From positions 1-56,022 of the IMG/VR virus record IMGVR_UViG_2534681672_000003: 56,022 nt of DNA; one strand, written 5' to 3'. This document shows positions 1-29,418 of this stretch, in pieces. How positions within the stretch are numbered: position 1 is the stretch's first letter; the number at the start of each line of letters is the position of its first letter. The position numbers and the translations under genes were made by a program. The notes beneath the pieces were generated by a model that searched no databases, had not been told where the DNA came from, and saw only the letters and a list, made by a program, of their open reading frames with translations. Source of the stretch: a virus (taxonomy: Duplodnaviria > Heunggongvirae > Uroviricota > Caudoviricetes).

Positions 1-657
1 ATGAAAAAAAACACAGATGATGGGGCTAAAATTTACACACCACTTACCCTAAAGCTTTATGACTGGTGGGTTTTGGGAGTATCAAATCGGCTTGCATGGG
101 GATGTCCTACAAAGGAGCACCTTCTTCCACACTTTCTGGAACATTTAGGTAACAACCATCTGGATATTGGTGTTGGAACTGGGTTTTACCTTACTCACGT
201 ACCTGAGAGTAGTCTGATATCTTTAATGGATTTGAACGAAGCTAGCCTGAACGCGGCATCTACAAGGGCTGGGGAATCAAAAATTAAACATAAAATTAGC
301 CATGATGTTTTTAAACCTTATCCCGCAGCGTTACATGGTCAATTTGATTCCATTTCCATGTTTTACCTTCTTCACTGCCTGCCTGGAAATATATCTACAA
401 AAAGCTGTGTAATACGCAATGCGGCGCAGGCCTTAACTGACGATGGAACTCTATACGGAGCCACAATTCTTGGCGATGGAGTTGTGCACAATAGCTTCGG
501 TCAAAAACTGATGTGCATTTACAATCAGAAAGGCATCTTTTCAAACACAAAAGATTCCGAAGAAGGCTTAACACATATACTCTCAGAGCATTTCGAGAAT
601 GTTAAAACCAAGGTTCAAGGTACTGTAGTAATGTTTTCCGCTTCAGGGAAAAAATAG
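1..657 (+). CDS. class I SAM-dependent methyltransferase (flank or moron gene)
   Basis: ORF begins at the window edge with ATG; SAM-binding-like motif LDIGVGTGF; lies beyond the tail-fibre genes. Confidence 0.5.
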   Translation: MKKNTDDGAKIYTPLTLKLYDWWVLGVSNRLAWGCPTKEHLLPHFLEHLGNNHLDIGVGTGFYLTHVPESSLISLMDLNEASLNAASTRAGESKIKHKISHDVFKPYPAALHGQFDSISMFYLLHCLPGNISTKSCVIRNAAQALTDDGTLYGATILGDGVVHNSFGQKLMCIYNQKGIFSNTKDSEEGLTHILSEHFENVKTKVQGTVVMFSASGKK

Positions 658-850: not shown

Positions 851-1150
851 TCACCCACGATTAACCAACAGCCAGACCAGCAGACACGCCACCACCGGCA
901 CAGCAAAATCCATCAGACTTGCTACATCCCATGCACGTGGGTCAAAACCGCCCCACCACGGCATATTCATACGCTTGCCATGCCCGAACATTTCAATCCA
1001 GCGATATTCTGCCTGGGTATGTTCACGCGCAATGAAGAACGTACAACCGGCTATCGCCCCGTAAGCCCAGTTCCCGGTAAAAAGACCAATCAGTAGCTGC
1101 GCAGCCACAGCACAAAGCGCATGAAGGAAAGGTGTTATATCCATTTTCAT
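851..1150 (-). CDS. small hydrophobic membrane protein, unknown function
   Basis: ORF track (trimmed to ATG after an AGGA-like RBS); two hydrophobic stretches; no family recognised. Confidence 0.3.
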   Translation of the reverse strand: MKMDITPFLHALCAVAAQLLIGLFTGNWAYGAIAGCTFFIAREHTQAEYRWIEMFGHGKRMNMPWWGGFDPRAWDVASLMDFAVPVVACLLVWLLVNRG

Positions 1151-1186: not shown

Positions 1187-2227
1187 TTATTTAGACGCAA
1201 GCGCCGCATCAATTGCAGATAATCTTTGTCTTAATTCTGCGTTTTCTTCTTCCAGTGCTGTTATTCTGTCGTCTGACTCTCTGGCTACCTGAACAAGCAA
1301 GCCAGTAACACCAGAATAATCTACTGTGTAATAACGTTCACCTTCTTCACCTTCCGATCCGCTCGCACCGTCCTGATATTTCATTGCGGAACCTACAACT
1401 TCTGGGATTGCTTCCAGAGCTTCCTGTGCAATGACACCAGCATAGGGCATACCGTTTTCTTTAAGCGTGTATGTATAGCCGTTCATTTTACGGATGCGGT
1501 CGGTTGCATTATCGATCACCTGAATGTTGTCTTTCAGATCCCGGTCGGAATGCTGGTTAAATGCGGTGGCATGACATGCACCATTAACGCTTAACATATA
1601 GGTGTTATCGGTATTTTTCTGCGCATAGAACATATAAGCGCCACCATCAACACCGACTTCATAAACAACAGGACGGCTGGAGTTGCCCCACAATTGAGCA
1701 GTAACACCAGCATAAGCGGTTCCCTGTGTGTTTAATGTCATGGTTGACCCATGATTGGCATATTTGATCTGTAATGTGTCGGTGTAATCAAATTTAATAA
1801 GCGCGTTACTTCCACGCTTGCTGTATGACATAAGGCAGTTACCCATTTTGAGGTATCCGCTGTCACCGGGAAAAATCATCGTACCGCCATAAAGGTTGGT
1901 AAAGTCCCAGCAAATGTTTGTCCCGTTATCGTTCAGGTTAAGGCGCGCCATTGCGTTACCTGGACTGTCTATCCATTTTTTGAGGTATAGTTCGCAATAC
2001 GCATCCTCAACACCTGCCGTCCTGTGAGTTGAGCGGAGTTTTCTCCCAAATATAGCTCCGCTAGTTGGCAATACCTGCTGATACCATGAAACAGACCAGT
2101 CACCAACGATTTCATCTTTGCTGTCTACATATAATTTTGTTGCGTAGCTTCCTTGATCGTTTTTTAATTTGCTAACGTCGGATTTTAGCGTTTTGATGTC
2201 ATCAGGAATTACTGTCGATGTAGCCAT
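1187..2227 (-). CDS. tail fibre or tailspike protein with C-terminal intramolecular-chaperone (peptidase S74-like) domain
   Basis: C-terminal SDRDLKDNI...AGVIAQEALE motif followed by coiled-coil ITALEEENAELRQRL; GAGGAAG RBS; downstream of stf. Confidence 0.6.
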   Translation of the reverse strand: MATSTVIPDDIKTLKSDVSKLKNDQGSYATKLYVDSKDEIVGDWSVSWYQQVLPTSGAIFGRKLRSTHRTAGVEDAYCELYLKKWIDSPGNAMARLNLNDNGTNICWDFTNLYGGTMIFPGDSGYLKMGNCLMSYSKRGSNALIKFDYTDTLQIKYANHGSTMTLNTQGTAYAGVTAQLWGNSSRPVVYEVGVDGGAYMFYAQKNTDNTYMLSVNGACHATAFNQHSDRDLKDNIQVIDNATDRIRKMNGYTYTLKENGMPYAGVIAQEALEAIPEVVGSAMKYQDGASGSEGEEGERYYTVDYSGVTGLLVQVARESDDRITALEEENAELRQRLSAIDAALASK

Positions 2228-2236
2228 TTTTCTTCC

Positions 2237-2518
2237 TCACATCCAGCCACGAAGTTGATGCTCAACAGCAACCACGTATTCATCGAATATTGACGATATT
2301 TGCGAATCATTAATGATGCGCACGTTTACAAAATATCCGTCTTCCTTAACACATACCGGTTCGCCATCTTCAGTCAGTTCTCCAGTTTCTTTGTACACAT
2401 TACCTATCACGTCAATAAGAATATCATCCTGCATCGACTCGTCATCATAATAGCCAATGCTCTCCATAAAGGCCGAAAAGTCGGCCCTGTCTGCAAATTT
2501 GAGTGTTAAATCTTTCAT
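2237..2518 (-). CDS. hypothetical phage protein (tail-fibre region)
   Basis: 93-aa ORF with strong RBS, start overlapping the stf stop; no family recognised. Confidence 0.4.
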   Translation of the reverse strand: MKDLTLKFADRADFSAFMESIGYYDDESMQDDILIDVIGNVYKETGELTEDGEPVCVKEDGYFVNVRIINDSQISSIFDEYVVAVEHQLRGWM

Positions 2519-4914
2519 TTAATACTCTCCCCCATTTGCGCATCAGTTAATTCTTTATGCCAGAGACGAAGATTTCTCAAATGGCCGAATAGATGACGAG
2601 TTCCCGATGTGGCTTGACCTCCAATTCGAATAAAGGTCCGTGTTTTTACGCCCGTCCACTCCGTTTTCATAGTTTTAGTAGCCTCACCGTTAGAAACTAC
2701 TCGTTTAGTACCATCAGAATAAATATTAAAACCACCAATGAATTTTCGAACATCAGTTCGACCAGCAAACACACTAGAAACGTAAGTACTTGTCGACGCT
2801 TTATAAGTTTGTATATAAAGCTGACCGTAACATTTCTCAGTTGTGTTAAAAGCGTATGTAATTGACTCAATAGGTGGCACACCAGAAAAATCAAAAATAC
2901 GCGGTGCTACATTAGGAGGAATATCGCCCCAATTTCTATTGACCTCGACAAGACACGTAAGCGGTCTATTATAGATATTATTTTCAGTTGGGATCGTCAC
3001 CATATCACTGGAGCGGGTTGCGGGTGCAGTTGTCGTAATAACAAAAGATGAAGCACATCCGCCGTTTTCAAATTGTGGTGTTGCAAGGTAAATATAATCT
3101 CCCGCTTCAGTTATACCACCTTTTTTCGGCGCATACTGAATCATTGCGCCAATTAAGGCTTCACCTTCAACAGCTTCTATAGTTGCCTCATAGAAAATCC
3201 ACCCTGTAACCGGATCTTTAGTTGCAGTAGCTGCTATTCTATTGGCTGCTCCGCCAGTTTTTTCTATTATCAGAGTTCCGAAAGTTAAATAAGCATCTCC
3301 TAAAAATGTATAAACCGACCCATCGTATTTTTCAAAACGCAAACGACAACGAAGACCATCAGGAGCTTTAACCCTGCATGAAACAGTGCAATACTTATTA
3401 TCGCCACTAACATCAATCCCCCGGGATGCACTGCATGTATGCAGACTAAGTGCAGATGATTGTCCTGTCATATTATCTTTTGTTCGCATTTTGGCATATG
3501 AAAAACCAAATTCATCAACACCATTATTAGTTTTATCGATATTGCTGGTACTCGTCCATTCAGCGGGAGTATTGGATTTAACAAAATAGTTAGTGCGCTG
3601 TCCTTCAATCAATAAACCTTCTTTTTCAAATCGTGGCTCATCAATTTTAGCAACACTAAATACGCCTGATTTATTGATATATGTGGCAGTTGATGCGCGT
3701 TTAAACTTAACAACCTTGTCGCCAGGCATCGTTATTTCATCATCACCAATAACAATTTTTTTATATGACGGCGAAAAGCCCGTAATCATATCCAGTGAAT
3801 CGTTAAACGGTATCCACACATCAGGCAGTGGCTGTAAGACATATTTATACGGCTCTGCTGCCTGACTTGCATACTCTCTGGCTGCGTCTTCACTTGCTTT
3901 AGCTGCTGTCTGGCTTGCTGCCGATGCTTTCGCCGAGTTCGCCGCTGCAGTCTCGCTTGTCTTTGCATTGGTTTCACTGGTTTTTGCCGCTTTTTGACTG
4001 TTGGCTGATGCAGTGGCAGAAGCAGCCGCCGCGCTTGCAGAACCAGCTGCCGCGCTCTCGCTTTGGGCTGCTGCAACCTGGCTGTTTTTCGCCGCAGTTT
4101 CGCTGGCTTTGGCATTCGTTTCGCTGGTCTTCGCTGCCGTCTGGCTGGACTTTGCGTTAGTTTCACTCGTCTTCGCAGCTTTCTGGCTGTTAGCCGCAGC
4201 AGTTGCTGATCCAGCTGCTGAAGTCGCAGAACCGGCTGCCGCGCTCTCGCTTTGGGCTGCTGCAACCTGGCTGTTTTTTGCCGCAGTTTCACTGGCTTTG
4301 GCATTCGTTTCGCTGGTTTTCGCTGCCGTCTGGCTGGACTTTGCGTTGGTTTCGCTCGTCTTTGCGGCTGTCTCGCTATTTTTCGCGTTGGTTTCTGATT
4401 TTTTGGCTGCTGTCGCGGAGTTTGCCGATGCAGTCTTTGAGGTCGCTGCCGCCTGTGCACTATTAGCTGCATTCGTTTCTGAGGTTTTCGCCGCGTTCTT
4501 TGATGATGCCGCTGCAGTTTCGGATTTCTTTGCCGCCGCTGCGCTCTGAGAGGCGGCTTCGGCGTTGCGTGCCACTTCTTCCACCATTGCCTCAAAACGA
4601 CGCAATGCCTCCGGCATGACATCATCTTCCGTCATGGCACCGAGAAAATCATTCAGCGTACCTGGTCTGGAGCCTTCATAGACGGTAATGGTCCCGGCAT
4701 GTGAAGGCGGAAAACCTTCAACCAGCAGGGTGACGCTGTACTGGCCATACTCAACATCCATGCTGTAACGTCCGGCTTCATCCGGATTTTCAGAAGCCAC
4801 CGTGTTCACCAGTACCGTGGTGCTGTTACGCTTTGCCTTCAGTTGAATAGTGCAGTTCTGTATTGGTTTTCCCGCACCATCTTTCAGCACACCTGAGATT
4901 TTTACTGCTGCCAT
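2515..4914 (-). CDS. stf: side tail fibre protein Stf (lambda-like N-terminus, repeat-rich shaft, distinct C-terminal domain)
   Basis: N-terminus MAAVKISGVLKDGAGKPIQNCTIQLKA matches lambda Stf from memory; start trimmed to ATG at 4914. Confidence 0.85.
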   Translation of the reverse strand: MAAVKISGVLKDGAGKPIQNCTIQLKAKRNSTTVLVNTVASENPDEAGRYSMDVEYGQYSVTLLVEGFPPSHAGTITVYEGSRPGTLNDFLGAMTEDDVMPEALRRFEAMVEEVARNAEAASQSAAAAKKSETAAASSKNAAKTSETNAANSAQAAATSKTASANSATAAKKSETNAKNSETAAKTSETNAKSSQTAAKTSETNAKASETAAKNSQVAAAQSESAAAGSATSAAGSATAAANSQKAAKTSETNAKSSQTAAKTSETNAKASETAAKNSQVAAAQSESAAAGSASAAAASATASANSQKAAKTSETNAKTSETAAANSAKASAASQTAAKASEDAAREYASQAAEPYKYVLQPLPDVWIPFNDSLDMITGFSPSYKKIVIGDDEITMPGDKVVKFKRASTATYINKSGVFSVAKIDEPRFEKEGLLIEGQRTNYFVKSNTPAEWTSTSNIDKTNNGVDEFGFSYAKMRTKDNMTGQSSALSLHTCSASRGIDVSGDNKYCTVSCRVKAPDGLRCRLRFEKYDGSVYTFLGDAYLTFGTLIIEKTGGAANRIAATATKDPVTGWIFYEATIEAVEGEALIGAMIQYAPKKGGITEAGDYIYLATPQFENGGCASSFVITTTAPATRSSDMVTIPTENNIYNRPLTCLVEVNRNWGDIPPNVAPRIFDFSGVPPIESITYAFNTTEKCYGQLYIQTYKASTSTYVSSVFAGRTDVRKFIGGFNIYSDGTKRVVSNGEATKTMKTEWTGVKTRTFIRIGGQATSGTRHLFGHLRNLRLWHKELTDAQMGESIK
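4038..4415. repeat. in-frame 189-bp tandem duplication inside stf, itself built of 42-bp (14-aa TSETNAKxSQTAAK-like) sub-repeats
   Basis: Near-identical blocks start at about 4038 and 4227 (offset 189 bp). Confidence 0.75.
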
Positions 4915-4924: not shown

Positions 4925-4951
4925 CAAAAAAGCCCGCCTGAACCGGCGGGC
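4925..4951 (-). terminator. rho-independent terminator after lom
   Basis: GCCCGCC-loop-GGCGGGC hairpin followed by a T-run on the minus strand. Confidence 0.6.
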
Positions 4952-4978
4952 TGTCATAACACTGTGTTACCTGGCTAA

Positions 4979-5578
4979 TCAGAACTTATAACCGACACCC
5001 ACGATGAAACCGTCAGTGCGCCAGTCGCCACTGCCGGAGCCTTCATAAGCAATATCAATGGCCACGGATTCGGTCGGGTTAAACTGCACGCCAGCTCCCC
5101 ACGCCAGAGACGTGTTGCTGTGGCGATCGTCATCACTTCCGGTCAGCACATCGTGCGTTTTCCCCTTGTTGTCAGTTACGCGGAGATAATCCCCGGAGAA
5201 GGTCGACACACGGCTGTAAGCCATACCCGCCATCGCATAAGCACTGAACCATTCATTCACGCGTACAGATGGCCCCGCCATCATGCTGAACCAGCGGTTA
5301 CGCACGGAATCTTCATGCCAGCGGGTATCGCTGTAATGCGTTTTTTGCTCATCTTTGGCATTGGCATAACTGAATGACGTCACCAGCCCCAGCGTGTCCG
5401 TAAATTCATAACGGTATTTCACGTTAATGCCCTTCAGGTCATCACTGCCTGGCATATCAGTATGGGTCTGAAGATACCCGGCGCTTAGTGTGGACTGATG
5501 CTCTGCTGCGCTCGCTGGCGTACCAGCGGCAACCAGCCAGACTACTGCGGACAGAATAACAGCACATAATTTACGCAT
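4979..5578 (-). CDS. lom: outer-membrane protein Lom (Ail/Lom family)
   Basis: Signal peptide plus beta-barrel protein matching lambda Lom from memory; position between J and stf. Confidence 0.9.
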   Translation of the reverse strand: MRKLCAVILSAVVWLVAAGTPASAAEHQSTLSAGYLQTHTDMPGSDDLKGINVKYRYEFTDTLGLVTSFSYANAKDEQKTHYSDTRWHEDSVRNRWFSMMAGPSVRVNEWFSAYAMAGMAYSRVSTFSGDYLRVTDNKGKTHDVLTGSDDDRHSNTSLAWGAGVQFNPTESVAIDIAYEGSGSGDWRTDGFIVGVGYKF

Positions 5579-5602: not shown

Positions 5603-5626
5603 AAAAAAGGCACCATTTCTGGTGCC
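5603..5626 (-). terminator. rho-independent terminator after J
   Basis: GGCACCA-TTTC-TGGTGCC hairpin with adjacent T-run on the minus strand. Confidence 0.5.
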
Positions 5627-5645
5627 CGTATCTGGGTTATAAAAT

Positions 5646-8600
5646 TCAGCTAATCGTGATGCCTGCAGTGGCTTTCTTCATCACAACAACCAGCAAATCG
5701 CTGATACTTGCTGTGGGATACCAGCCATTTACCAGCCATGCTGACACCGAAAACTCCAGTGTCATGTGACCGTGACCGGCAGGCATATCAATAACGCCAC
5801 TGTAAATCAGCGTATTATCCAGCGCGGTACGGTTATAAATTTCAGCACCGTTTTTCCGCACTATCAGACGGCATGAGGAGTAAATATCAGTATGCTCTCT
5901 CTCATGCTTAGCGCCACTGAATGCCACCGCCGGAATAACAATTTGCCGGTCAAACGGCTGATCGTCATAAACCCTGACGGTAATGGTCCCTGATGGCCAC
6001 CGCTCCGGTGCCCGGGAGTCACGGGGGAAAGCTTTGCCCACTGTTTTAACGAGATCGCCTTCAATCTGGTTCGCGGACAGTTTTCCCAGAACCCGGCAGT
6101 TCTCGTTAATCGTGACGTTGTTGAGCGTCCCGGAGTTCGCATTCACGTTACCGCTGATATCGGCATTTTTCGCCGTCAGCCGCCCGTCCGGTGTCAGGGA
6201 AAATGCCGGAGGATTACCGCCGCTGGTAATGGTGGGAGCCGTCAGATATTTCAGGAACACTTCGTTCATGAATATCTGATTGCCCTGCGCCACAAACATC
6301 GGCGTTTCATTCCCGTTTGCCGGGTCAATAAATGCGATACGGTTAGCGGCAACCAGGAACTGGCTCAGTTTGCCTTCCTCCGTGTCCTCCATGCTGAGGC
6401 CAATACCCGCGACATAATGTTTGCCGTCTTTGGTCTGCTCAATTTTGACAGCCCACATGGCATTCCACTTATCGTTGGCGTCCTTCCACTCTTTCGAAAA
6501 CTCCTCCAGTCTGCTGGCGTTATCCTCCGTCAGCTCGACTTTTTCCAGCAGCTCCTTGCCGAGATGGGATTCGGTTATCTTGCCTTTGAAAAAATCCAGG
6601 TAACCTTCCGCATCATCGCTCACCCGACCGACAGCCTCCACGAATGTCGATTTGCCGACGGTGTTCACACTGCGAACGTAAAAATAATAATCATGGCCCG
6701 GTTTGATATTGATACTGGCGGCTATCCAGTACAGCGCCGTGCCAAGATAACGCGCGCTGGTTTCAACCTGCCTGATATCCGCAATCCGATTTTCCGAGAA
6801 CCAGAACTCAAACTGTACCGTCGGATCATAAACCGCAAGATGCGGCGTGGCGGTTATCTGAAAATAGCCCGGCGTCAGCTCAATCCGCGATGGCGCTGCC
6901 GGTGCGGCAATCCGGAACGATACCGACGCCGGATCGCCCTGCTGCCCCCACGCATTTACCGCCCGGACTGTCAGACTGTAATTTCCCAGAGCCAGCTGCC
7001 TGAAGCGGTATGTGGTTTCCGTCGTCCGGGCCGTGCTGACCAGCCGCTCACTGCCGTCATCCGCTGCCACGGTCAGGCGAAGCATAAAGCTCACGCCCTT
7101 CACCACCTTCGGCGTATCCCAGCGCGCCAGCACCTGGTATTCCCCGCTGTCTGCGGTGACTTCGGCGGTCAGGTGCTGCACCGCTGGCGGCGTGACACCA
7201 TTCACCGTGCCGCTCTGGTCGCCGTCAAAGTGCGCCCCGTTATCCACGATGGCTTCTTTTTCCGGTACATGCTGCACGGCAGTGATGGCATACGTGCCGT
7301 CATCGTTCTCACGGATACTCACACAGCGGAACAGGCGCTGGCGCAGCGTCGGCAGCTTCAGCCCCCACACGCTGTATTCGGCAACGCCGTCAGGAACCCG
7401 ACTCACTTTCACCTTCACGCCGTCGGTGACGGACTGAACCTCCACGCTGACCGGACTCCCCTGCCCGTCAACCAGGCTTATCAGCGTGGTACCGGAGGAT
7501 GGCAGCGTGATTTCACGGTCGAGCGTCAGCGTCCGGGTCTGGCTGTTCACCGCCAGCACGCGCCCGCCAATGCTGATCCCCGCATAGTCATCATCGCAGA
7601 TTTCAATAACATCACCCGGTACATGGCGAAGCCCTTCTGCGCCGACGCTGAAATCCACGGTCTGCGTTTCCAGCAGTTCTGTTTTAATCAGCCACAGCCC
7701 GGCGCGGTGTGCCTGCCCCCGGCTGGTACAGCCAAAGGCATCCATCTTCGTGACGTTACGACCGTAACGGGCAATGGCCTGCGTGTCCTCCACAAGCTCT
7801 GTCGCCGTCTCCCAGCCGTTATCCGGGTCAATCCAGTTCACCTCAACGGCATTATGACGGTCCTTCAGGGCGCTGAAGCTGTAGCGGAACGGCGCGCCAT
7901 CATCCGGCATCACCACATTACTGCGGTTATAGGTCCACACCTTATCCGATGGCCGGTCCTGCACGAACGTCAGCGTCTGCCCGTTCCATACCGGCATACA
8001 GCGCATCGCCGAGCAGAAATCACTGAGCACATCCCACGCCTTGCGCTGCGTGGTCAGCCAGGCATTACAGGTGATGCGCGGCTCCGTGCCACCAAAGCCA
8101 TCCGGCACCGACTGGTCGCAATTCTGGCCGATGACATACAGCGCCCATTTGTCCACATCCGCCGCACCGAGACGCTTCCCCATGCCGTAGCGCGGATGGG
8201 TCAGCATATCCCACAGACACCAGGCCATGTTGTTGCTGTATGCCGGTTTAAACGTCCCGTCCCAGATACCGCTGTATTGCCGCGTCTGCGGGTTATAGTT
8301 CGATGGCACCTGCAGAATACGCCCGCGCAGATGATAATTACGGCTCACCTGCTGGCTGCCGAACTGCTCCGAGTCCACCTGCACGCCGACCAGTGCCGTG
8401 TTCGGGTAGCACTGTTTCACATCGATGATTTCGGTGTATGACGACCAGAGCGTTTTGTTCTGCAGCTGGTCTGTGGTGCTGTCCGGCGTCATCCTGCGCA
8501 TCCGGATATTAAACGGGCGCGGCGGCAGGTTATCCACCACCACTGAGGCCAGATACTGCGAGGTGGTTTTACCCTTAATGGTGATGTCTTTTTCCGTCAC

Positions 8601-9041
8601 CCAGCCACCGTTACGTTGTATCTGAACCAGCAGGCGGACTTCCGATGGATTCCTGTCCCCCTTTGAGGTGGTTTCCACCAGTGCCTGCACACCGAAGGTA
8701 AAGCGCAGACGGTCGATGTTTGCCGACGTGATGGTGCGGGTGATCGGCGTGTCATATTTCACTTCCGTACCCAGCACCGTCTCGGAACCGGAGGATTCAA
8801 ATCCCTCCGGCGGAGTCTGCTCCTGCTCACCGGCCCGGAACACCACCGTGACGCCGGATATATTGGTATTCCCCTCACTGTCCAGCACCGGCGTACTGTT
8901 CAGCAGCACGCTTTTTAATCCATCCACCGGACCTTCAACCGGCCCTTCGCTGATGGCATCGATCACACTCAGCAGCTGCGTGGACTTCAGGTTGTCCTTC
9001 GCTTCGCGCGGGGTATGCCCCTTACTGCTGCCTTTACCCAT
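5646..9041 (-). CDS. J: tail tip/host-specificity protein J
   Basis: 1131 aa, collinear with lambda J as recalled. Confidence 0.95.
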
Positions 9042-17352: not shown

Positions 17353-18141
17353 TTACGCCAGTTGTACGGACACGAACTCATCAGGGTCAGCCAGCAGCAT
17401 CAGCGGTGCTGACTGAATCATGGTGAACTCACGCGCCGGATCGCCGGTGGTCACCCAGTTTTTCGGGTAGCGGGCAGAGGCGTTAATGCCTTCGCGCTGT
17501 GCGTCCGCATCCTGAATGCAGCCATAGGTGCGCAGACCGCGTGCCTGAGTGTTCCCCAGCACCATCGTGTTGTCCGGCAGGAAGTTCTTTTTGACGCCGT
17601 TTTCCACGTACTGTCCGGAATACACGACGATGGCCACATCGCCATACATTCCCTTATAGGACACCGCTTTGCCCAGGTCTTTTACCGCTGTCTCCAGCTC
17701 GGAATGAGAGCCGCGACGGGTATCCAGCTTCTCCCTGACGGCTTTGAAAGAACGGAACAGCGCCCAGCCTTTCGGATCAAACACGATGATATTCACCACA
17801 CCGCTGGCGTTCAGCGCGTAGGCTTCGATATCGTCTGTCGGGTCATACGTGGACTTGTCACGCTTGCTCCACTCCGTGCCGCCGGACTGCGTGATGTTAT
17901 TCGCCTCACTGCGGCCCATATCCACCTCAACCGGATCGAAGGCTTCACCGGTCATGGTGTATTTGCCCTTAAGCACGGCAGAAACTGCCTGCATCTCTTC
18001 GACCTGAGCAATGGCCAGCTCTTCGTCACGCATGTTCTGCATGATGATGCGACGGCGGCGGTAAGTCGGGTCCGCCAGATTCTGCGGATCTTCATCCGGC
18101 AGGCGACGCAGGGTCATCTGCGGATTCACCTCATGCTTCGG
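17353..18141 (-). pseudogene. E: major capsid protein E, 3' fragment (codons from ...PKHEVNPQMTLRRLPDED to the stop)
   Basis: Lambda E C-terminal two-thirds; upstream reading frame hits a stop immediately past 18141, where unrelated AT-rich sequence begins. Confidence 0.9.
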
Positions 18142-18143
18142 CT
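18134..18143. repeat. left copy of 10-bp direct repeat TGCTTCGGCT (att core or target duplication)
   Basis: Identical 10-mer at 29567-29576; both copies lie in E codons K-P-K. Confidence 0.75.
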
Positions 18144-18220
18144 ACATGAGTCAAATATGAAAGGATGTGAATGATTTGATTACGTTTTAGCTATAGAATT
18201 GAAATGGAAAATCCTTGAAT

Positions 18221-18240
18221 GCAATACAACGTGCAATACA
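18221..18240. promoter_or_regulatory. candidate integrase arm-type site GCAATACAA-CGT-GCAATACA (left arm)
   Basis: Same motif in the same orientation at 29419-29438 near the other junction. Confidence 0.5.
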
Positions 18241-18277
18241 TGGATGAAAACCATCACTCATTTAACAAGAGGAATCT

Positions 18278-19183
18278 ATGCGCTCACCCAACAGAATGCA
18301 TGAACGCTCAACATTTTATAAGTATATGTCGTTGAATACCGCGAAGATTGTTCTTGATTCATGCAGCCTTAGATGGAGTTCTCCGGTCCTATTTAATGAC
18401 CCTTTTGATGTTCCAAGAGAAGTTATGCCTGGTATTAACGAAATTAATATTGGCAAAGCTTTAGCCCGCAAGTTAATAGCGGAGTTGATTACCCCCAGAG
18501 AAGACATACAAAATTTAAACCCTAGAATTAGAACAATGCTAAGTGATTTCCAAAAGTCATTTCCTTTAGGCATACCCGCAGGATTAATTGAAAGATTTCA
18601 AGAAATGGTAAACATTCCACCAGTTGGGATTGGCGCTCCTGCGGCAATACAAGAAATGAAAGATGTCTGGCGAGGAATGCTTAATAACAGAAGGATTTTG
18701 TGTTTATCTGAGAGCCCTATAATCACTCCTATGTGGAATCACTATGCCGATAAATATAAAGGTATAGTTATCGAATTTGATTGTGTAGACTTTCTGGATA
18801 GCGCTTGGTTAATAGCCAAACCTATGAAATACACAGATGAAATGCCTCTAACTCACACTGCTGAAGGGATGGCCGAGTTGCTTTTCATGCCAGACAATAA
18901 GTCAATTGAATATATCAATAATGAGATAATATTCATAAAAACAGAAGAATGGGCATATGAAAGAGAGTGGAGAATTTCAACCTACGCTAGGCCAAATAGC
19001 ACTGGTCAATATAGCGACTTAAAATTTCACCCTTTTGAGTTAAAATCTGTAATACTTGGTCCTCTTTTTGATGCCAGCGAGTTCGATGAAGTCGCATCAC
19101 TAGTTAAGATGTATCCAAGAGCGAAATTATTTAAAAGTTCATTTGGGAACGACAGAAAAATATCCATAGTACCACTACCTTAA
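18278..19183 (+). CDS. DUF2971 family protein (AT-rich cargo; candidate anti-phage function)
   Basis: N-terminal YKYMSLNTAKIVLDSCSLRWSSPVLFNDPFD matches the DUF2971 signature as recalled; AAGAGG RBS; low GC. Confidence 0.65.
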   Translation: MRSPNRMHERSTFYKYMSLNTAKIVLDSCSLRWSSPVLFNDPFDVPREVMPGINEINIGKALARKLIAELITPREDIQNLNPRIRTMLSDFQKSFPLGIPAGLIERFQEMVNIPPVGIGAPAAIQEMKDVWRGMLNNRRILCLSESPIITPMWNHYADKYKGIVIEFDCVDFLDSAWLIAKPMKYTDEMPLTHTAEGMAELLFMPDNKSIEYINNEIIFIKTEEWAYEREWRISTYARPNSTGQYSDLKFHPFELKSVILGPLFDASEFDEVASLVKMYPRAKLFKSSFGNDRKISIVPLP

Positions 19184-19223
19184 AAGGTCAAATGCTTTTG
19201 ACAAATAAAATCTATCGCCAGTT

Positions 19224-19240
19224 TTACTGGCGACTTTTAA
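19224..19240. terminator. bidirectional hairpin GCCAGT-TTT-ACTGGC between convergent genes
   Basis: Inverted repeat between the DUF2971 stop and the nu1-like stop. Confidence 0.45.
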
Positions 19241-19289
19241 GCAACAAAGAACCACCTAAGCACTCTTCCTACCTATGGTTTCATTTGTT

Positions 19290-19841
19290 TTAACTTCGCT
19301 GATTATCCTTGATATACCTTTCAGCCATATCTGGAATGTTATCTGAGATCTGGTAAGCTCGAATAAATGCTTTACTGACCTCCATCTTAATGAAGTCCTG
19401 ATACCGTTTTCCCATGCCAGGAAACTGTCGACAGATCGCAAGTGGAAGACTATCAATGATTGCTCCAACTTCCCCAGTTAATTTCGACAAGGCATAAGTC
19501 GCAAATGCAGTGTCAATTACCTCACCTGTTTCGCTGGCATTCTTCAGTTCCTGTGCGTCGGCCTGCGCACGCGTAAGTCGATGGCGTTCATACTCAATAG
19601 TCCCTGGCAGGAGATCTGCCTCGCTGGCCTGCCGCAGTTCTTCAACCTCCCGGCGCAGCTTTTCGTTCTCAATTTCAGCATCCCTTTCGGCATACCATTT
19701 TATGACGGCGGCAGAGTCATAAAGCACCTCATTACCCTTGCCACCGCCTCGCAGAACGGGCATTCCCTGCTCCTGCTAGTTCTGAATGGTACGGATACTC
19801 GCACCGAAAATGTCAGCCAGCTGCTTTTTGTTGGCTTCCAT
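19290..19841 (-). pseudogene. nu1-like small terminase subunit paralogue with in-frame TAG at codon 22 (possible restart at Met27)
   Basis: First two-thirds nearly identical at DNA level to helper nu1 (35283-35828) except TGG to TAG at 19776-19778; C-terminal third diverged. Confidence 0.7.
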
Positions 19842-19859
19842 TGTTCATTCCACGGACAA

Positions 19860-20060
19860 AACCAGAGAAAGGAAACGACAGAGGCCAAAAAGCCTGTTTT
19901 TAGCACCTGTCGTTTCCTTTCTTTTTAGGGGGTGTTTTTAATAAAAACATTAAGTTACGGCGAAGAAGAACGGAAACGCCTTAAACAGGAAAATTTTCAC
20001 AAATAGCGAAAAACTGCGCGCCTGACGCCCCGTAGCCTGTCAGATCGCCGGAAAGGACCC
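19860..20060. other. element cos site (cosB-like R-site sequences plus variant cosN at about 20019-20030)
   Basis: Aligns to helper cos at 35838-36030; flanks conserved, 12-nt overhang positions differ. Confidence 0.65.
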
Positions 20061-20086
20061 GCCAGCCAGAGCGGGCCCTAATTTCA

Positions 20087-20470
20087 TCAACCAATCAGCT
20101 TATAGCGACCATCCCGTGCATTGCGGCGTACACGCTCAATCTTGAGGCATAGCGCCGCATCTGGCTTTTTTGGGACAGGTACGCGGCAATATTCAGAAGC
20201 GCGAGGAATATTATTTATCCAGTCGATCACTTCACTTAAATACCAGGCCTTACGCCCTTCCGTAACCTGCACACGCTCCGGGAACTCTCCACTAGCCTCA
20301 AGGTTTAGCAGTGTACGACGACTCAGGGTTGTAATTTCCATCACCTGATTCATATCAACAAGGCGCTCGCTTAAACACATTTTGTCAGCGATAGCTTTTA
20401 ATTCCTCTACAGCTGGATTCGGGTACATCATTTCGGCAATTGGCTTAAGGTCATTGTAATCATTCTGCAT
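20087..20470 (-). CDS. AlpA/Xis-type HTH DNA-binding protein
   Basis: Motif TTLSRRTLLNLEASGEFPERVQVTEGRKAWYLSEVIDWI; AGGGGG RBS; last gene of the capsid operon, ending about 57 bp from cosN. Confidence 0.6.
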   Translation of the reverse strand: MQNDYNDLKPIAEMMYPNPAVEELKAIADKMCLSERLVDMNQVMEITTLSRRTLLNLEASGEFPERVQVTEGRKAWYLSEVIDWINNIPRASEYCRVPVPKKPDAALCLKIERVRRNARDGRYKLIG

Positions 20471-20481
20471 TGTATCCCCCT

Positions 20482-20823
20482 TTACACACGAGCCAGCGGC
20501 TGAACAGAAATACCTGAGCCAACAAACGCTGCAACCTTTACTGACAGTTCTTTAACAGACTCAGGCCAGTTCAGAGCATCAACATTTAAGACACCTGTCT
20601 TATAGACCTGAGCCTGTGTTTTTTTCGCGGTGTCGATTTGTACAGCGGAAACATAAACCGCTTTACCTACGCTCGAACCATCCCATACCACCAGTGCACC
20701 TGTTGCATCTTCCTGCATCAGTGGCGTAAATGCAGGAATTACCCCTTTATTAGCTGAAAATATCCCCAGCGTAGTCACCAGTGCTTCAGTGCCAGCCATG
20801 AGTTCAGTGTAATGAGTAGCCAT
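20482..20823 (-). CDS. head decoration protein, lambda D-like
   Basis: Alignable by eye to helper D (TPLM, WDG, YK-G, WPE, AF-G-IS shared); AGGGGGAG RBS. Confidence 0.7.
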   Translation of the reverse strand: MATHYTELMAGTEALVTTLGIFSANKGVIPAFTPLMQEDATGALVVWDGSSVGKAVYVSAVQIDTAKKTQAQVYKTGVLNVDALNWPESVKELSVKVAAFVGSGISVQPLARV

Positions 20824-20832
20824 TGCTCCCCC

Positions 20833-21873
20833 TTAGCCAATGCGAACGGTAACAAAACGATTGATGCGGGCCGGTATTGGCTGTGGTGCTGAATGTGTCT
20901 GCACATATTCAATAGCCGGATCACCAGGCACAATATAGTTTTTCGGTGCAAGTTCGGCTTTAGTCAGCCCCATTCGGATTAGCTCCGGATCCTGAATACC
21001 GCCATAGGCGACAATCCCCTGAAGAGCCGTATTGCCAAGCACCATCAAATCAGGATCAAGGAAATGTTTTTCTGTTCCGTCCTCGTCGGTATAACGCCCG
21101 CTGTAAACAACAATCGCAACATCGCCCATATACCCTTTAAAACTCACCGAATCACCAAGGTCTTTAAGGGCCGTTTCCAGTTCGGAATTAGAACCACGAC
21201 GGGTATCCAAAGCCTCTTTTATCGCTCTGAATGAACGGTATTTCTTCCATACATTACCACCCATAATGATGATATTAGTGACGCCCTCACTAAATTCTGC
21301 GTAGCTCTCAATATCATCATTTGGATCAAAAGTTTCTTTATCCTTACCTGACCACTCAGTACCGCCAGACTGAGTGATGATATTTTGTGGTTTTATATTC
21401 CAGTCCAGCTCATAACGTTCAATACCATCGCCCTCAATGATATTTTTCCCCGTTGTGATAGCCTGAACAGCAAGCCATTCAATACGTGCACGAATAGCTT
21501 TAGCCTGATTTACAATCGCCTGTTTAACTTTAATATTACGCGCCCCAAAAGCATTGTATTGCTCAGGTGACACACCAGCAGGGCGCACAGCTAACTTATT
21601 TGGATCAATGCTGCTTTTCGGCTTCATATAACCTGGACGAATTGTTTTTGATTCGTATCCCTCATCTCGTGAAACTTTACTGCCCACCATAGGAGAGCAA
21701 AACGCCGCGATCGGGATATTTGGATCGTCGATCGTATCAAGAATAATGTCTCTCGATTCAAACATTACCGAGCGAGTGAAAAACAAACTGGTAAACAACG
21801 CATTTAATTTTTTTTGTACATCTACAGCATTAACCACCTGTACAAGCTGAGTAGGCGAATATAAATCAACCAT
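20833..21873 (-). CDS. major capsid protein, lambda E-like (HK97 fold)
   Basis: 346 aa, alignable over the full length to helper E (ITQSGGTEWS, ALDTRRGSNSELETA, DVAIVVYSG shared); start trimmed to the ATG after AAGAGG. Confidence 0.8.
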   Translation of the reverse strand: MVDLYSPTQLVQVVNAVDVQKKLNALFTSLFFTRSVMFESRDIILDTIDDPNIPIAAFCSPMVGSKVSRDEGYESKTIRPGYMKPKSSIDPNKLAVRPAGVSPEQYNAFGARNIKVKQAIVNQAKAIRARIEWLAVQAITTGKNIIEGDGIERYELDWNIKPQNIITQSGGTEWSGKDKETFDPNDDIESYAEFSEGVTNIIIMGGNVWKKYRSFRAIKEALDTRRGSNSELETALKDLGDSVSFKGYMGDVAIVVYSGRYTDEDGTEKHFLDPDLMVLGNTALQGIVAYGGIQDPELIRMGLTKAELAPKNYIVPGDPAIEYVQTHSAPQPIPARINRFVTVRIG

Positions 21874-22074
21874 ACGCATCCTCTTTGCATTCATTAAAAA
21901 TAATTGTGGATATATGCTATCACCGATATTTGTCATGCGAACACATGCAACCGAGTGCAATGTTGTATAAAGTTTTGGGGTGACAACTTCAGTGCGGACA
22001 ATTAGTGTTAATATCTTCACTCCCTTTGGTCGGGATTTATGTAGCATGCAGGAAAATTTATTTTTTCCGGCCTT

Positions 22075-22792
22075 TTTGTGCACAGAAAACCCCCAGCTAG
22101 GCTGGGGGTTCCGGAAAGCTTTCAGCTTTGAGCCAGTTATTAAAACCCCTTTTGATTTGTTAAAACACTTTGCGGTCTGGCAACTGCAAGTGTCAAACAA
22201 GAAATCAAAAGGGGGTCCCAATGGGGAACGAAAAGAGCTTAGCGCACACCCGATGGAACTGTAAATATCACATAGTTTTTGCGCCAAAATACCGAAGACA
22301 GGTGTTCTACAGAGAGAAGCGTAGAGCAATAGGCAGTATTTTGAGAAAGCTGTGTGAGTGGAAAAGCGTACGGATTCTGGAAGCTGAATGCTGTGCAGAT
22401 CATATCCATATGCTTGTGGAGATCCCGCCCAAAATGAGCGTATCCGGGTTTATGGGATATCTGAAAGGGAAAAGCAGTCTGATGCTTTACGAGCAGTTTG
22501 GTGATTTGAAATTCAAATACAGGAACAGGGAGTTCTGGTGCAGAGGGTACTACGTCGATACAGTGGGTAAGAACACGGCGAAGATACAGGATTACATAAA
22601 GCACCAGCTTGAAGAGGATAAAATGGGAGAGCAGTTATCGATTCCCTATCCGGGCAGCCCGTTTACGGGCCGTAAGTAACGAAGTTGGATGCAAATGTCA
22701 GATCGTGTGCGCCTGTTAGGGCGCGGCTGGTAAGAGAGCCTTATAGGCGCATTTGAAAAACCTCCGGCTATGCCGGAGGATATTTATTTTAT
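22075..22792 (+). mobile_element. IS200 insertion sequence
   Basis: IS200-type TnpA flanked by terminal hairpins (about 22087-22110 and 22771-22789); boundaries approximate. Confidence 0.8.
22221..22679 (+). CDS. tnpA: IS200 transposase TnpA (Y1/HUH)
   Basis: MGNEKSLAHTRWNCKYHIVFAPKYRRQVFY... matches IS200 TnpA as recalled; trimmed to the ATG at 22221. Confidence 0.92.
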   Translation: MGNEKSLAHTRWNCKYHIVFAPKYRRQVFYREKRRAIGSILRKLCEWKSVRILEAECCADHIHMLVEIPPKMSVSGFMGYLKGKSSLMLYEQFGDLKFKYRNREFWCRGYYVDTVGKNTAKIQDYIKHQLEEDKMGEQLSIPYPGSPFTGRK

Positions 22793-22801
22793 TGGCAATA
22801 T

Positions 22802-23251
22802 TTAAAACGGGATATCATCTCCCCATTGCTCATTATCTCCCACTGGTGGCTGGCTTCCTTGCTGATCTGCCTGTTGTTTTGCTCTGTTCAGTGCGTCAGT
22901 AGCCTGCCCCTGTTGGCCTTTATTGCCGCCCGGTCGCACCGATCGCGCACTGATTACGCTGTCTGCGATAACCTGCCAGCCCTGCCGCGTTTCGCCGTTC
23001 TGTCCAGTCCACTGGCTCATCTGCATGTTACCCGCCACGCTCAGGAGTTCGCCTTTGTGATGCTTTGCCAGCGCGTCGGCTTGTCTGCCAAACGCCAGGA
23101 CAGATAACCACATCGTCGCCTGACCGTCATCCGACTGACTGCAGGGCAGTGATACCGCCATACGCGCCAACGTCATGGGGGTGCCCTTGCTGGTCTGTTT
23201 TGTCTGCGGGTCGTCCACCGACCGCCCGTAAACTGATATTTGCGCCGTCAT
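22802..23251 (-). CDS. SSB-like protein with C-terminal DDIPF tip
   Basis: Ends ...NEQWGDDIPF (SSB acidic-tip motif); glycine/glutamine-rich linker; AT-skewed neighbourhood. Confidence 0.5.
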   Translation of the reverse strand: MTAQISVYGRSVDDPQTKQTSKGTPMTLARMAVSLPCSQSDDGQATMWLSVLAFGRQADALAKHHKGELLSVAGNMQMSQWTGQNGETRQGWQVIADSVISARSVRPGGNKGQQGQATDALNRAKQQADQQGSQPPVGDNEQWGDDIPF

Positions 23252-23493
23252 GCGGCCTGCTCTCCGGACTTAATATTGATTGTTGTCACTTCCTCCGCTT
23301 CAGCAATCTCCCGTTCGGTCAGAGTGGCAAAGTTTGCAGCCGCCGTTGTCATGAATGCGCTAATCAGTTCGGGATGTGCTTTCGCGTATCCTTCCCCGGC
23401 GTTGCGGTCGATGATTTTTATCGACACCCTTAACCAGTGTTCCGTCAAATCAAGGGCGTGCGATTGTGATTTTTTTGTGTGCTTCGCTGTCAT
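23248..23493 (-). CDS. hypothetical protein
   Basis: 81-aa ORF, stop overlapping the SSB-like start. Confidence 0.35.
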   Translation of the reverse strand: MTAKHTKKSQSHALDLTEHWLRVSIKIIDRNAGEGYAKAHPELISAFMTTAAANFATLTEREIAEAEEVTTINIKSGEQAA

Positions 23494-23538
23494 AGGCTTT
23501 ATCTCACAGCAGTAAATTAAAATTTTTGCGTTTTAACC

Positions 23539-23770
23539 CTTCACCTGTTCACCTTTTGATATTTTCTCTTTTAATTCATAATGTTAATGGGTGAACAGTT
23601 TCACAAAAACTATTCACCAACTGTTCACCACTGTTCACCCTTGAAGCTCAATAAACAATCAAAAAGGTGAACAGTGAATAGTTTGGTGAACAGTTCATAA
23701 ATAACTGTTCACCCTATAATATACTGATATAAAAGATATTTATGACAGGGTGAACAGTGGTGAACAGTTA
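23539..23770. repeat. replication-origin iterons, about 9 copies of TGTTCACC / GGTGAACAG in both orientations
   Basis: Octamer recalled as the P4 alpha binding site at ori/crr; lies directly downstream of the primase-helicase gene. Confidence 0.7.
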
Positions 23771-23780
23771 TTCCATAAGT

Positions 23781-25601
23781 TTAATTTTTGCTATCGTCAT
23801 TAGTGACCGATACACATGATGGCATCCAGTCTTCTGATTCCTCCGTCAGGGTCACGTTTGAACGCAAACCGTGCTTCGTTTTCCGTTTCATATACTCCCT
23901 GCCATATTCCGCCATTGCCCCCGGCATATCTTTACCGAAGCGCGTCAGTGTTACAGGTTTACCAAACCCATGTGCCCTCATATAAGCCAGATAGGCATGA
24001 TAGAGATACCTGCGTGGGCTGAATGGCACAATTTCAGCATTACCCACTAACAGGCCATCACACATTACCGATGCCATGAGATAACCGCAGAAGTCCACCA
24101 GCGAATCCCCCTCTCGCTTTATCGCCAGTGCTTCTTCAGATTTCTGCTGCTCATATAACAGGCGTCTGGCTTCGTCCTGATCAGCAAACCTTGTAAGCAG
24201 ATGACGAATCACTACCGCCAGCTCACCTTCTATTTTTTCCGCCAGCATCGAATCGCGTTCGTTCTCCGGTACAACTTCCGAAAAATTGAATATCACCCGA
24301 CGACGTGAGATCCCCCCGCTGCGGTCACTGAATGACATGGCGTTATTGTTAACCGCCAGCACTACTGCCGGAATACGCGTTGAATAGGGGGCTTTGTGTT
24401 TCGGGTCAATTGCCACCTTGTCACCGCCTGTAATGGCCTTAATCCCTGCCCCATCACCAGCGTAGCGGGTCATATCCGGCATGATAATCAGCGAAAAGCC
24501 AACCACTAACGCACGTTCCCTTGCATCTTCCAGCGCCTTCATGCTTGCTGATACTGTATTAGCCTTACCCGCCAGCATGGTGCAAATCTCCGCCATCACA
24601 CTTTTACCACTTCCCCCCGGCCCTGTTACCTCAATGAATAACTGCCAGTCGTACCGGTTCGCCAGCACCATGAATAATGCCGCCAGTACGCGATCTGCCT
24701 TGCGGTCATTCTCAGCCACCGAACGGCGCAACCACTTCCAGAAATTCGGCGCATGTGTTGCCAGCGTTTCCCCCTCTGCTGGTGGGCTGAAAGGTAATTC
24801 ACTGGCAATTAACAACCAGTCGTTTTTGTTATGCTCCCGAAAGTTACCAGTTCTGGTATCAAATACCCCGTTACTGAATCCAATCAGGTTACGGGCTGTA
24901 TTCCCCATTACAGGCAAACTTAACTTCATGGTATCTACCGCCGATTTAATAGCGTTCTGCGAATAGCTGATCTCCGCATCAATGAAAATCTGCGCCATAG
25001 CACGCTGTAACTCTTTATCCTGAACCGGCTCCCATACAACGCCGTTGTAATGATGAACGGTGTCAGAGTCGGCATTGATTGCCAGTTCGCCGCCGTAATG
25101 TGCAAGGAGAACTTCACCGCGCTGGCTGGCCCCCATCTGATTCAACGCCAAAGATGAAGCACGCTCGTCATTTTTGCGCTCAGCCTTCTTCACTGGCAGT
25201 TCAATCACCAGACTTTCCCCATGCTCCGCTTCAGCTTTTAGGCCGACAAGGCGCGGAGTCCAGTCTTCAGGCTCTCGATCAACAAAGCTACGGTAACAAC
25301 GTGCTTCCTTTACGCCTGCAATAGCAAGTAATGTCGCAACCTTCGTCAGACTTTTCTCTGCAATCTTTCCGGCACGATAAACACGCACATAATGACGGCC
25401 TTCATCGATAATTTGCATATCATCCAGGTTTTCCAGTTGTTCCGTACCCAGAATGACTGGTGGTGTATCATCTGCTGCAATATGCTTACCTGCCCATTCA
25501 TTCCATTCTTTTGCATGGCTCCAGGCATCACTGCCAGCAAAAATGATGACTTCCGTCATTTTGTCGCGCGGTTGGTATTTTAAGTTCGGAGCACGTTTCA
25601 T
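23781..25601 (-). CDS. replication initiation primase-helicase (P4 alpha-like, P-loop NTPase)
   Basis: Walker A VTGPGGSGKS; 606 aa; GGAGG RBS; adjacent to the iteron origin. Confidence 0.65.
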   Translation of the reverse strand: MKRAPNLKYQPRDKMTEVIIFAGSDAWSHAKEWNEWAGKHIAADDTPPVILGTEQLENLDDMQIIDEGRHYVRVYRAGKIAEKSLTKVATLLAIAGVKEARCYRSFVDREPEDWTPRLVGLKAEAEHGESLVIELPVKKAERKNDERASSLALNQMGASQRGEVLLAHYGGELAINADSDTVHHYNGVVWEPVQDKELQRAMAQIFIDAEISYSQNAIKSAVDTMKLSLPVMGNTARNLIGFSNGVFDTRTGNFREHNKNDWLLIASELPFSPPAEGETLATHAPNFWKWLRRSVAENDRKADRVLAALFMVLANRYDWQLFIEVTGPGGSGKSVMAEICTMLAGKANTVSASMKALEDARERALVVGFSLIIMPDMTRYAGDGAGIKAITGGDKVAIDPKHKAPYSTRIPAVVLAVNNNAMSFSDRSGGISRRRVIFNFSEVVPENERDSMLAEKIEGELAVVIRHLLTRFADQDEARRLLYEQQKSEEALAIKREGDSLVDFCGYLMASVMCDGLLVGNAEIVPFSPRRYLYHAYLAYMRAHGFGKPVTLTRFGKDMPGAMAEYGREYMKRKTKHGLRSNVTLTEESEDWMPSCVSVTNDDSKN

Positions 25602-25885: not shown

Positions 25886-25888
25886 TTT

Positions 25889-26471: not shown

Positions 26472-26554
26472 AATCGTTACCTCGTTTAACGGTTTGGTTA
26501 GAAGCCCGGTTAGTGTTCGCGCACTGCCGGGTTTCGTCGTTTTTATGAATCGAT

Positions 26555-26670: not shown

Positions 26671-26679
26671 TGATTAACT

Positions 26680-28166: not shown

Positions 28167-28167
28167 G

Positions 28168-29403: not shown

Positions 29404-29418
29404 TTTTAGCCCCAAAAA

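Follow-up and report, generated by a model that had tools for sequence, protein, structure and literature searches.

A Lambdoid Side-tail-fiber Operon Whose Three Products Probably Form a Composite Fiber with an Exchangeable Distal Tip

RESULTS

Organization of the Side-tail-fiber Operon

The DNA analyzed here (referred to as the window) is a stretch of 56,022 nucleotides from a virus of the Caudoviricetes (IMG/VR record IMGVR_UViG_2534681672_000003, positions 1 to 56,022). The features of interest are three consecutive genes near its start, which encode the side-tail-fiber protein Stf, an acidic protein of 93 amino acids (aa), and a second fiber protein of 346 aa. The window begins with ybcY (a methyltransferase gene; 1-657, plus strand) beside ompT and then runs into a lambda-like prophage, and its initial 12.9 kb are 99.99% identical to the DNA of Escherichia coli strain 1517k. 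The region represents the side-tail-fiber operon of a lambda-like prophage residing at argU/DLP12 in E. coli.

The tail and fiber features described below all lie on the minus strand. In the lambda-like tail operon, J (5646-9041) is followed by lom (4979-5578) and then by stf (2515-4914), an order typical of a lambda-type Stf. The stf product, assigned here as the proximal fiber protein, comprises 799 aa when translated from the ATG, or 801 aa from an upstream GTG at 4920; it matches phrog_1419 over its full length, and a RefSeq record of 100% identity annotates it as “prophage tail fiber N-terminal domain-containing protein.” The original prediction named the 346-aa gene (1187-2227; a full-length match to phrog_4563, tail fiber) as the next fiber gene but overlooked the 93-aa open reading frame (ORF) at 2237-2518, which sits between the two fiber genes. 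The stop codon of stf is shared with the ATG of the 93-aa gene in an ATGA overlap of the kind associated with translational coupling, the 346-aa gene starts 9 nt past the stop of the 93-aa gene, and a terminator-like hairpin (GGGGCCGAGCGCCCC followed by GTTTTATT; 1166-1180) directly after the 346-aa gene closes the operon. Strong terminator-like hairpins were also observed on either side of lom (4931-4952 and 5608-5627). Given the ATGA overlap, the 9-nt gap, and the positions of these hairpins, stf and the 93- and 346-aa genes look like a single three-gene operon. The flanking hairpins also fit lom being a separately expressed accessory gene placed between J and stf, as in lambda.

No separate Tfa gene is present directly downstream of stf, where the 93-aa ORF, the 346-aa fiber gene, and a 97-aa ORF are found instead. 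The prediction that the 346-aa gene is likewise not followed by a tfa gene was also correct, the only trace being a short pseudogene remnant of ∼40 codons at about 712-831, beyond the 97-aa ORF.

Domain Structure of Stf and Its Repeat-bearing Shaft

Stf begins with a virion-anchor domain (4519-4908) that was identified as PF08400 (phage_tail_N) with an E value of 5.5e-67. The “Tail fiber protein” chain of PDB entries 9e7m/9mgh, which has 94 residues, aligns with residues 5-97 (E 8.4e-49). The anchor is followed by a shaft (aa 113-356; 3847-4578) of ∼35 unbroken Ala/Ser-rich heptads of the form x-A-A/K-x-S-x-x, in which Ala and Ser occupy fixed positions.

Tandem Repeats Finder reported a repeat at 3943-4377 with a period of 189, 2.3 copies, 85% matches, and a score of 632, together with nested periods of 42 (4088-4189) and 21. 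The 189-bp tandem duplication that had been predicted in stf is thus real and, given that 189 bp correspond to 63 codons, in frame. The 42-bp period proposed as its building unit is present as well, but it represents two heptads and is not the primary period; the basic unit is 21 bp, or 7 aa, equivalent to one heptad. With the in-frame alignment, copy 1 (189 bp, 63 aa, nine heptads) was placed at 4180-4368 and copy 2 (189 bp) at 3991-4179. The two copies are 87.3% identical in DNA and share 59 of 63 residues. They differ at 24 base positions, 19 of which are the third base of a codon, and for 16 of the 24 the encoded residue is the same in both copies. The low DNA identity (just 87%) argues that the duplication is old, and the prevalence of third-position and residue-preserving differences points to purifying selection; judged by these comparisons, the repeat appears to have been held by selection on the protein and is not a fresh product of slippage.

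A weak match (E 0.024) was observed between residues 159-349 of Stf and residues 40-228 of LtfA from phage DT57C, a region that forms a three-helix coiled coil in cryo-electron microscopy (PMC4728585, PMC10713586). By analogy, the Stf shaft is likely to be a trimeric coiled coil. The duplication would then add nine heptads, or roughly 9 nm, and leave the register unchanged.

The remainder of the protein (aa 357-799; 2518-3846) is a C-terminal module of ∼440 aa. In tblastn searches this module was found in 218 phage records, 206 of them with at least 80% coverage, and its carriers include lambdoid phages, Dhillonvirus, Nonagvirus/Seuratvirus, and T5-like and rV5-like phages. The anchor that precedes it varies and may be PF08400, the P2-type combination PF12571 and PF03406, or absent. 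The best-conserved segments of the module are aa 355-434 and 775-794, and it is proposed that the module acts as the socket for a distal fiber.

Within the module lies a lectin-like β-sandwich (about aa 449-619; 3058-3570). NCBIfam NF048003 (GTA_spike_fiber, “head spike fiber domain”) was matched at aa 435-635 with an E value of 2.8e-15, and the AlphaFold monomer model of the lectin-like domain has pLDDT values of 80-95. Foldseek matches of the β-sandwich comprise the tail fiber of the Pseudomonas phage Pa193/E217 (probability 1.00), CBM4, CBM40, laminin-G, and the binding domain of botulinum toxin. The modeled fold is consistent with a possible extra receptor-binding domain. No S74 domain was detected in Stf.

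Domain Structure of the 346-aa Protein

The N-terminal 226 aa of the 346-aa protein are 99% identical to proteins of the isolated phages Tritos, PhiR63_1, HannyBb, and 2G7b. Three regions can be distinguished. The first, aa 1-20 (2168-2227; MATSTVIPDDIKTLKSDVSK), is a proposed docking peptide delimited by motif conservation, and the AlphaFold model places a helix at aa 9-27. In distant standalone homologues these 20 residues stay 67% identical, whereas the middle of the protein is just 15-30% identical. The motif M-x-T-x-T-x-I-P-x-D-I-x-x-L-K that describes the peptide is present in 31 of the 120 homologues listed, among them every standalone homologue closer than ∼70% identity and the majority of those below this level; two further homologues (P0162 and P0164) carry close variants outside the strict pattern. 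The analysis also covered 80 IMG/VR prophage loci, chosen because their 93-aa gene is at least 94% identical to that of the window. These gave 72 complete downstream ORFs, of which 71 exceed 100 aa, and 70 of the 72 contain the motif.

The second region (aa 36-226; 1550-2122) was delimited from the conservation profile as a variable, β-rich, putative receptor-binding region. Variability peaks at aa 41-100, β strands are predicted at aa 58-214 (pLDDT 75-92 in the AlphaFold monomer), and aa 110-221 resemble the C-terminal regions of P2 gpH and the P1 fiber with 31-36% identity. A Foldseek search of the PDB with the 346-aa monomer model gave no match at E ≤ 0.001, an intertwined trimer probably having been modeled as a monomer; the best hits were OspA-like single-layer sheets and, weakly, T4 gp34 and the R2 pyocin fiber.

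The third region (aa 227-346; 1190-1549) is an S74 intramolecular chaperone domain, recognized from its Pfam match, its conserved residues, and its alignment with phage S16 gp37. The domain search confirmed the prediction of such a domain: PF13884 (Peptidase_S74) matches aa 227-278 over profile positions 1-57 of 58 with an E value of 4.8e-14 and 52.8 bits (cutoff 22). The segment Ser227-Asp-Arg-Asp-Leu-Lys232 aligns with SDRRIK at the C terminus of S16 gp37 (PDB 6f45), and when the chaperone domain alone was compared with the PDB by phmmer, S16 gp37 was recovered at E 0.003, but not endoNF or T5 pb1. Residues S227, D228, R229, L231, and K232 are each at least 90% conserved among 49 homologues, and a C-terminal helix is predicted at aa 304-344. 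The catalytic pair of endoNF is reportedly Ser911/Lys916 (Schwarzer 2007; Schulz 2010). Autocleavage at Ser227 (codon 1547-1549) is predicted, and would yield a mature fiber of 226 aa (∼25 kDa) and a 13-kDa chaperone fragment.

The 93-aa Protein and the Three-gene Cassette

The 93-aa protein (pI 4.05; phrog_1361) had no relative in profile searches of Pfam, NCBIfam, or the PDB. Homologues were found in 186 phage records, invariably beside the Stf C-terminal module, and the counterparts in Bas32 and Bas34 are annotated “tail fiber protein.” It is proposed that the protein is a fiber partner, acting as an adaptor or chaperone.

The three genes constitute a cassette: a fiber with the ∼440-aa C-terminal module, an acidic protein of ∼90 aa, and a fiber with the conserved N-terminal peptide, a variable middle, and S74. 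This order is shared by Tritos, PhiR49_1, JenP2, SelmaRatti (Bas34), IrisVonRoten (Bas32), and KarlBarth, and was confirmed in the 80 prophage loci. The cassette occurs in lambdoid, Nonagvirus, Dhillonvirus, and T5-like phages. In all six named phages the distal fiber starts with the motif given above, and in each except KarlBarth the motif is followed by an unrelated middle and a terminal S74 domain; the distal gene of KarlBarth is split (gp30/gp31), and an S74 domain was not found there. Among 5426 complete E. coli genomes, about 91 contain 80% or more of the cassette region, so that at least about 90 have essentially all of it. The 93-aa proteins encoded by the isolated phages Tritos, 2G7b, HannyBb, and PhiR63_1 are 97-98% identical to that of the window, and Stf of Tritos is 74% identical to the window Stf. 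A literature search on the ECOR-derived PhiR phages retrieved no paper describing these fibers.

The arrangement bears directly on whether the two fiber proteins work together. The 346-aa protein carries neither PF08400 nor any other virion anchor recognized by Pfam, and its N-terminal peptide travels with the Stf module and not with the type of tail. These two observations argue that the products of stf, the 93-aa gene, and the 346-aa gene build one composite, two-part fiber in which the 346-aa protein is the exchangeable distal tip, a reading to which we assign a probability of about 0.7.

Alternatively, Stf and the 346-aa protein could be independent fibers, each attached to the virion by itself and conferring one of two host specificities. 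Each of the two has a region that could plausibly bind a receptor (the lectin-like domain of Stf and the β-rich middle of the 346-aa protein), and phages with two independent receptor-binding proteins exist. Such an arrangement is nevertheless considered unlikely, as the second protein lacks a recognizable anchor, the ∼20-aa peptide is shared by phages with different tails (lambda-like, T5-like, Nonagvirus, and Dhillonvirus), all of which have the Stf module and the 90-aa gene, and the homologous pair of Bas32 has been modeled as a proximal and a distal fiber. Dual binding may still occur on a single composite fiber, through the Stf lectin-like domain and the distal tip.

A fiber switched as in Mu, P1, or e14, with alternative ends brought into use by DNA inversion or programmed rearrangement, would be a further source of two specificities. 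In Tritos (locus L002, 2847-3437) a gene for a PinR-type site-specific recombinase lies right after the cassette, although no invertible segment is evident, and the repeats within stf could in principle recombine. However, there is no invertase gene beside the cassette in the window or in the 100% identical RefSeq record, where the downstream region consists of the 97-aa ORF, the tfa remnant, and ybcY; no long inverted repeats bracket the fiber segments, those found being limited to an 18-nt pair within the 346-aa gene and one weak palindrome; and the three genes lie together on a single strand in an operon closed by a terminator. A switch of this kind is thus highly improbable. Given the anchorless distal protein, the Bas32 model, and the lack of an invertase or bracketing inverted repeats, the original prediction of two distinct distal fibers with a dual or switched host range is not supported.

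Exchange of the distal gene, as expected if the 346-aa protein is the tip of a composite fiber, is apparent among the prophage loci. Behind near-identical 93-aa genes, the distal gene encodes 346 aa in 38 loci and 234 aa in 22, with other lengths in a few. The 346- and 234-aa alleles were each observed with both length classes of the Stf C terminus, and it follows that host range is probably altered by swapping the distal tip.

Variation in Shaft Length

The repeat copy number was compared in two sets of sequences. Among the best 120 Stf clusters, 97 are of 798-802 aa and 17 are of 735-737 aa, and those of the 735-737-aa forms that were aligned have exactly 63 aa, equivalent to one copy, fewer. 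One cluster of 755 aa, which lies outside the set of measured shafts, is 44 residues shorter than the window Stf in alignment, a difference that may or may not preserve the heptad register. The 80 prophage loci yielded 64 complete Stf proteins, in 53 of which the shaft, taken as the segment from RRFE to LQPLPDVW, could be measured. Most of these shafts are of 255 aa, and the others are of 192, 248, or 241 aa. The measured differences of 63, 7, and 14 residues are whole heptads every time. The prediction that copy number varies among related prophages and alters shaft length is therefore supported.

The predicted causes of this variation were slippage or recombination. A one-copy allele (locus L008) was compared with both copies at the 24 sites that distinguish them; it agrees with copy 1 at the first 6 and with copy 2 at 17 of the 18 that follow. 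This allele is a chimera of copies 1 and 2, as one unequal crossover would be expected to produce. Replication slippage was considered as the mechanism and found unlikely, in view of the limited identity between the copies (only 87%) and the clean chimeric structure of the one-copy allele. Unequal homologous recombination thus fits the change in copy number better than slippage.

A three-copy allele was not found, there being no form of ∼862 aa among the best 120 clusters and no shaft of 318 aa among the 53 that were measurable. At least 80% of the repeat-bearing region is held by about 1000 of 5426 complete E. coli genomes, and among the genome matches listed, those with 98-100% coverage contain no gaps and hence have the two-copy length.

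Genomic Context of the Operon

The state of the prophage raises the question of whether the fiber genes are decaying relics of a defective phage without current function. Relative to the near-identical 1517k prophage, the window contains an 11.4-kb insertion (18144-29566) flanked by a 10-bp direct repeat. This insertion, with flanks at 17353-18143 and from 29567 to about 29802, splits a major capsid gene of the lambda E type. The near-identical prophage of 1517k has insertion sequence (IS) elements in its integrase gene and regulatory region, and the tfa pseudogene remnant lies close to the cassette. Decay is nonetheless an unlikely explanation for the cassette itself. Its three reading frames are intact, the distribution of differences between the repeat copies (19 of 24 at third positions, 16 residue-neutral) indicates purifying selection, a near-identical gene set is carried by the isolated phages Tritos, 2G7b, HannyBb, and PhiR63_1 (the distal proteins matching at ∼99% in their first 226 aa), and the region is retained to at least 80% in the about 91 complete E. 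coli genomes noted above.

The 11.4-kb insert encodes a Nu1 small terminase (19290-19763), its own E-type capsid protein of 498 aa (20833-22329), a D5-type primase-helicase (23781-25601), and a tyrosine integrase (28168-29454), and further specifies SSB, AlpA, a D-like decoration protein, and a DUF2971 protein. It looks like a capsid-forming satellite of the phage-inducible chromosomal island (PICI) type that has inserted into a prophage which may be its helper, splitting the capsid gene there. Several complete genomes show this arrangement too, the matched region carrying three “major capsid protein” annotations. This capsid-gene insertion may be more interesting than the fiber finding.

The IS3-family and IS1203 insertions of 1517k (NZ_CP054388.1), which interrupt a regulator gene and the integrase gene of its prophage, are absent from the corresponding positions of the window (about 38350 and about 55080). 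The integrase gene of the window is thus not interrupted by an IS element. Like DLP12, the window prophage carries iss/bor and emrE.

The 97-aa ORF (851-1144, minus strand; phrog_1443) lies just past the terminator of the fiber operon, and its product has three hydrophobic stretches. It is kept at the same place by Tritos and PhiR49_1, as well as by other lambdoid prophages; virulent phages bearing the cassette do not have it there. These features suggest that it may be an independently expressed accessory gene for a membrane protein. At the prophage end, the tfa remnant (minus strand, about 602-831) and ybcY (plus strand, 1-657) match the tfaX/ybcY remnants of the DLP12 region in K-12. It seems that the present cassette replaced an older, Tfa-dependent fiber end.

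DISCUSSION

The composite fiber can be described by the following minimal model. Stf would form the proximal part, fixed to the tail tip by its lambda-type N-terminal domain and continuing through the shaft of ∼35 heptads, with its old nine-heptad duplication, into the ∼440-aa module that contains the lectin-like β-sandwich. The N-terminal peptide and short helix of the 346-aa protein would dock on this module, possibly via the 93-aa protein, and the variable β-rich middle would bind the receptor, most likely a surface glycan. The S74 domain would aid folding of the trimer and then remove itself at Ser227; with a chaperone built in, a separate Tfa would be unnecessary. Unequal recombination involving the diverged copies of the repeat would alter shaft length in steps of whole heptads, and host range would shift mainly through swapping of the distal gene.

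Several observations weigh against this model. Docking of the distal protein is proposed on the basis of synteny, the conserved peptide, and a published prediction for homologues that are 45% (Stf) and 39% (small protein) identical to those of the window. The AlphaFold monomer models are of moderate quality, with mean pLDDT values of 68.5 and 62.2, and that of the distal fiber gave no significant fold match to the PDB in Foldseek. The rV5-like phages pair a protein of the 93-aa type with the Stf module, but do so without a motif-bearing distal fiber, and their version of the small protein lacks the conserved C-terminal tail. The 93-aa protein may, therefore, be a chaperone or cap for the Stf module rather than a connector, although the rV5-like pattern suits either a module chaperone or a connector whose tail receives the distal fiber. 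Finally, given that its major capsid gene is interrupted by the inserted element, the copy of the prophage in the window may currently make no virions.

A wider role for the small protein can also be envisaged, though it must be regarded as doubtful. Here, the acidic ∼90-aa protein and the conserved ends of the Stf module would constitute a universal socket, and the distal N-terminal peptide M-x-T-x-T-x-I-P-x-D-I-x-x-L-K would be the plug. If so, a single attachment system would serve P2-like prophages as well as lambdoid, T5-like, Queuovirinae, and Dhillonvirus phages, the transfer of distal receptor-binding proteins between otherwise unrelated phages would require no re-adaptation to each tail, and the 93-aa protein would represent a novel type of fiber connector, without a relative in Pfam, NCBIfam, or the PDB.

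Side tail fibers decide which O-antigen-covered strains of E. coli a temperate phage reaches. If the proximal part is fixed and the tip exchangeable, the distal allele (346 or 234 aa) should predict host range better than stf does, and a lambda-based delivery particle could be given a new target by exchanging just one 1-kb gene, for which a separate chaperone is not required. By the same token, the whole-heptad changes in the shaft would provide a natural experiment on fiber length versus adsorption.

Comparison with Known Systems

The Stf of phage lambda has a homologous N-terminal anchor and an Ala/Ser-rich repeat shaft, and is encoded at the same place after J and lom. Its distal end is T4 gp37-like and needs a separate Tfa chaperone. 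By contrast, the fiber end encoded in the window comprises a lectin-containing module and a separate distal protein with built-in S74, and tfa persists only as a pseudogene remnant.

The chaperone domain belongs with those of the endosialidase type (K1F endoNF, T5 pb1, and S16 gp37), with which it shares PF13884, and the canonical five-residue Ser/Lys spacing is kept in the window. The passenger is different, being a short fiber tip of 226 aa and not a sialidase or a long fiber.

The LtfA/LtfB fibers of DT57C and DT571/2 offer a further parallel, in that a second fiber without an anchor, ending in an autocleaving S74 domain, is carried by the first. These fibers also have a proximal shaft of three-helix coiled coil and recognize O-antigen (PMC4728585, PMC10713586). 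In DT57C, LtfB attaches to the virion via LtfA by its N-terminal ∼45 aa, for which there is both genetic and cryo-electron microscopic support (PMC4728585, PMC10713586). However, S74 is present in both LtfA and LtfB, whereas it is absent from the window Stf, and LtfB branches along LtfA, whereas the attachment point of the distal protein in the window is probably at, or close to, the Stf C-terminal module. Apart from the shaft repeats (E 0.024), no significant sequence similarity was detected between the two fiber systems.

The closest counterpart is found in the Tequintavirus IrisVonRoten (Bas32), in which gp22-gp23-gp24 have the same three-gene order as the window. The window Stf is 45% identical to gp22 over 767 aa, a region that spans the shaft and the lectin/galectin-like C-terminal module, and the corresponding identity for the 93-aa protein and gp23 is 39% over 92 aa (E 3.6e-26). 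The 346-aa protein and gp24 are 59% identical (10 of 17) over the N-terminal 17 aa and 30% identical (E 2.4e-6) in the chaperone domain, and share no other part. In the work on the BASEL phages, gp24, a fiber with an intramolecular chaperone, was modeled as joined to the proximal gp22 by AlphaFold-Multimer, and the terminal galectin-like domain of gp22 was considered as a possible additional receptor-binding domain (PMC11990801 = doi 10.1101/2024.09.12.612763). The two systems differ in their virion anchor, which is the PF08400 domain of lambda Stf in the window and a T5-type N terminus with an LtfC collar in Bas32, and in the distal fiber, which has 346 aa and a single variable region in the window but 574 aa and a T-shaped double receptor-binding arrangement in Bas32. 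They differ also in lifestyle, the window phage being a temperate lambdoid and Bas32 a virulent T5-like phage. The locus is thus a lambdoid case of a fiber design already described in other coliphages; current concepts are unchanged, and the fiber design of the BASEL phages is extended to common prophages of E. coli.

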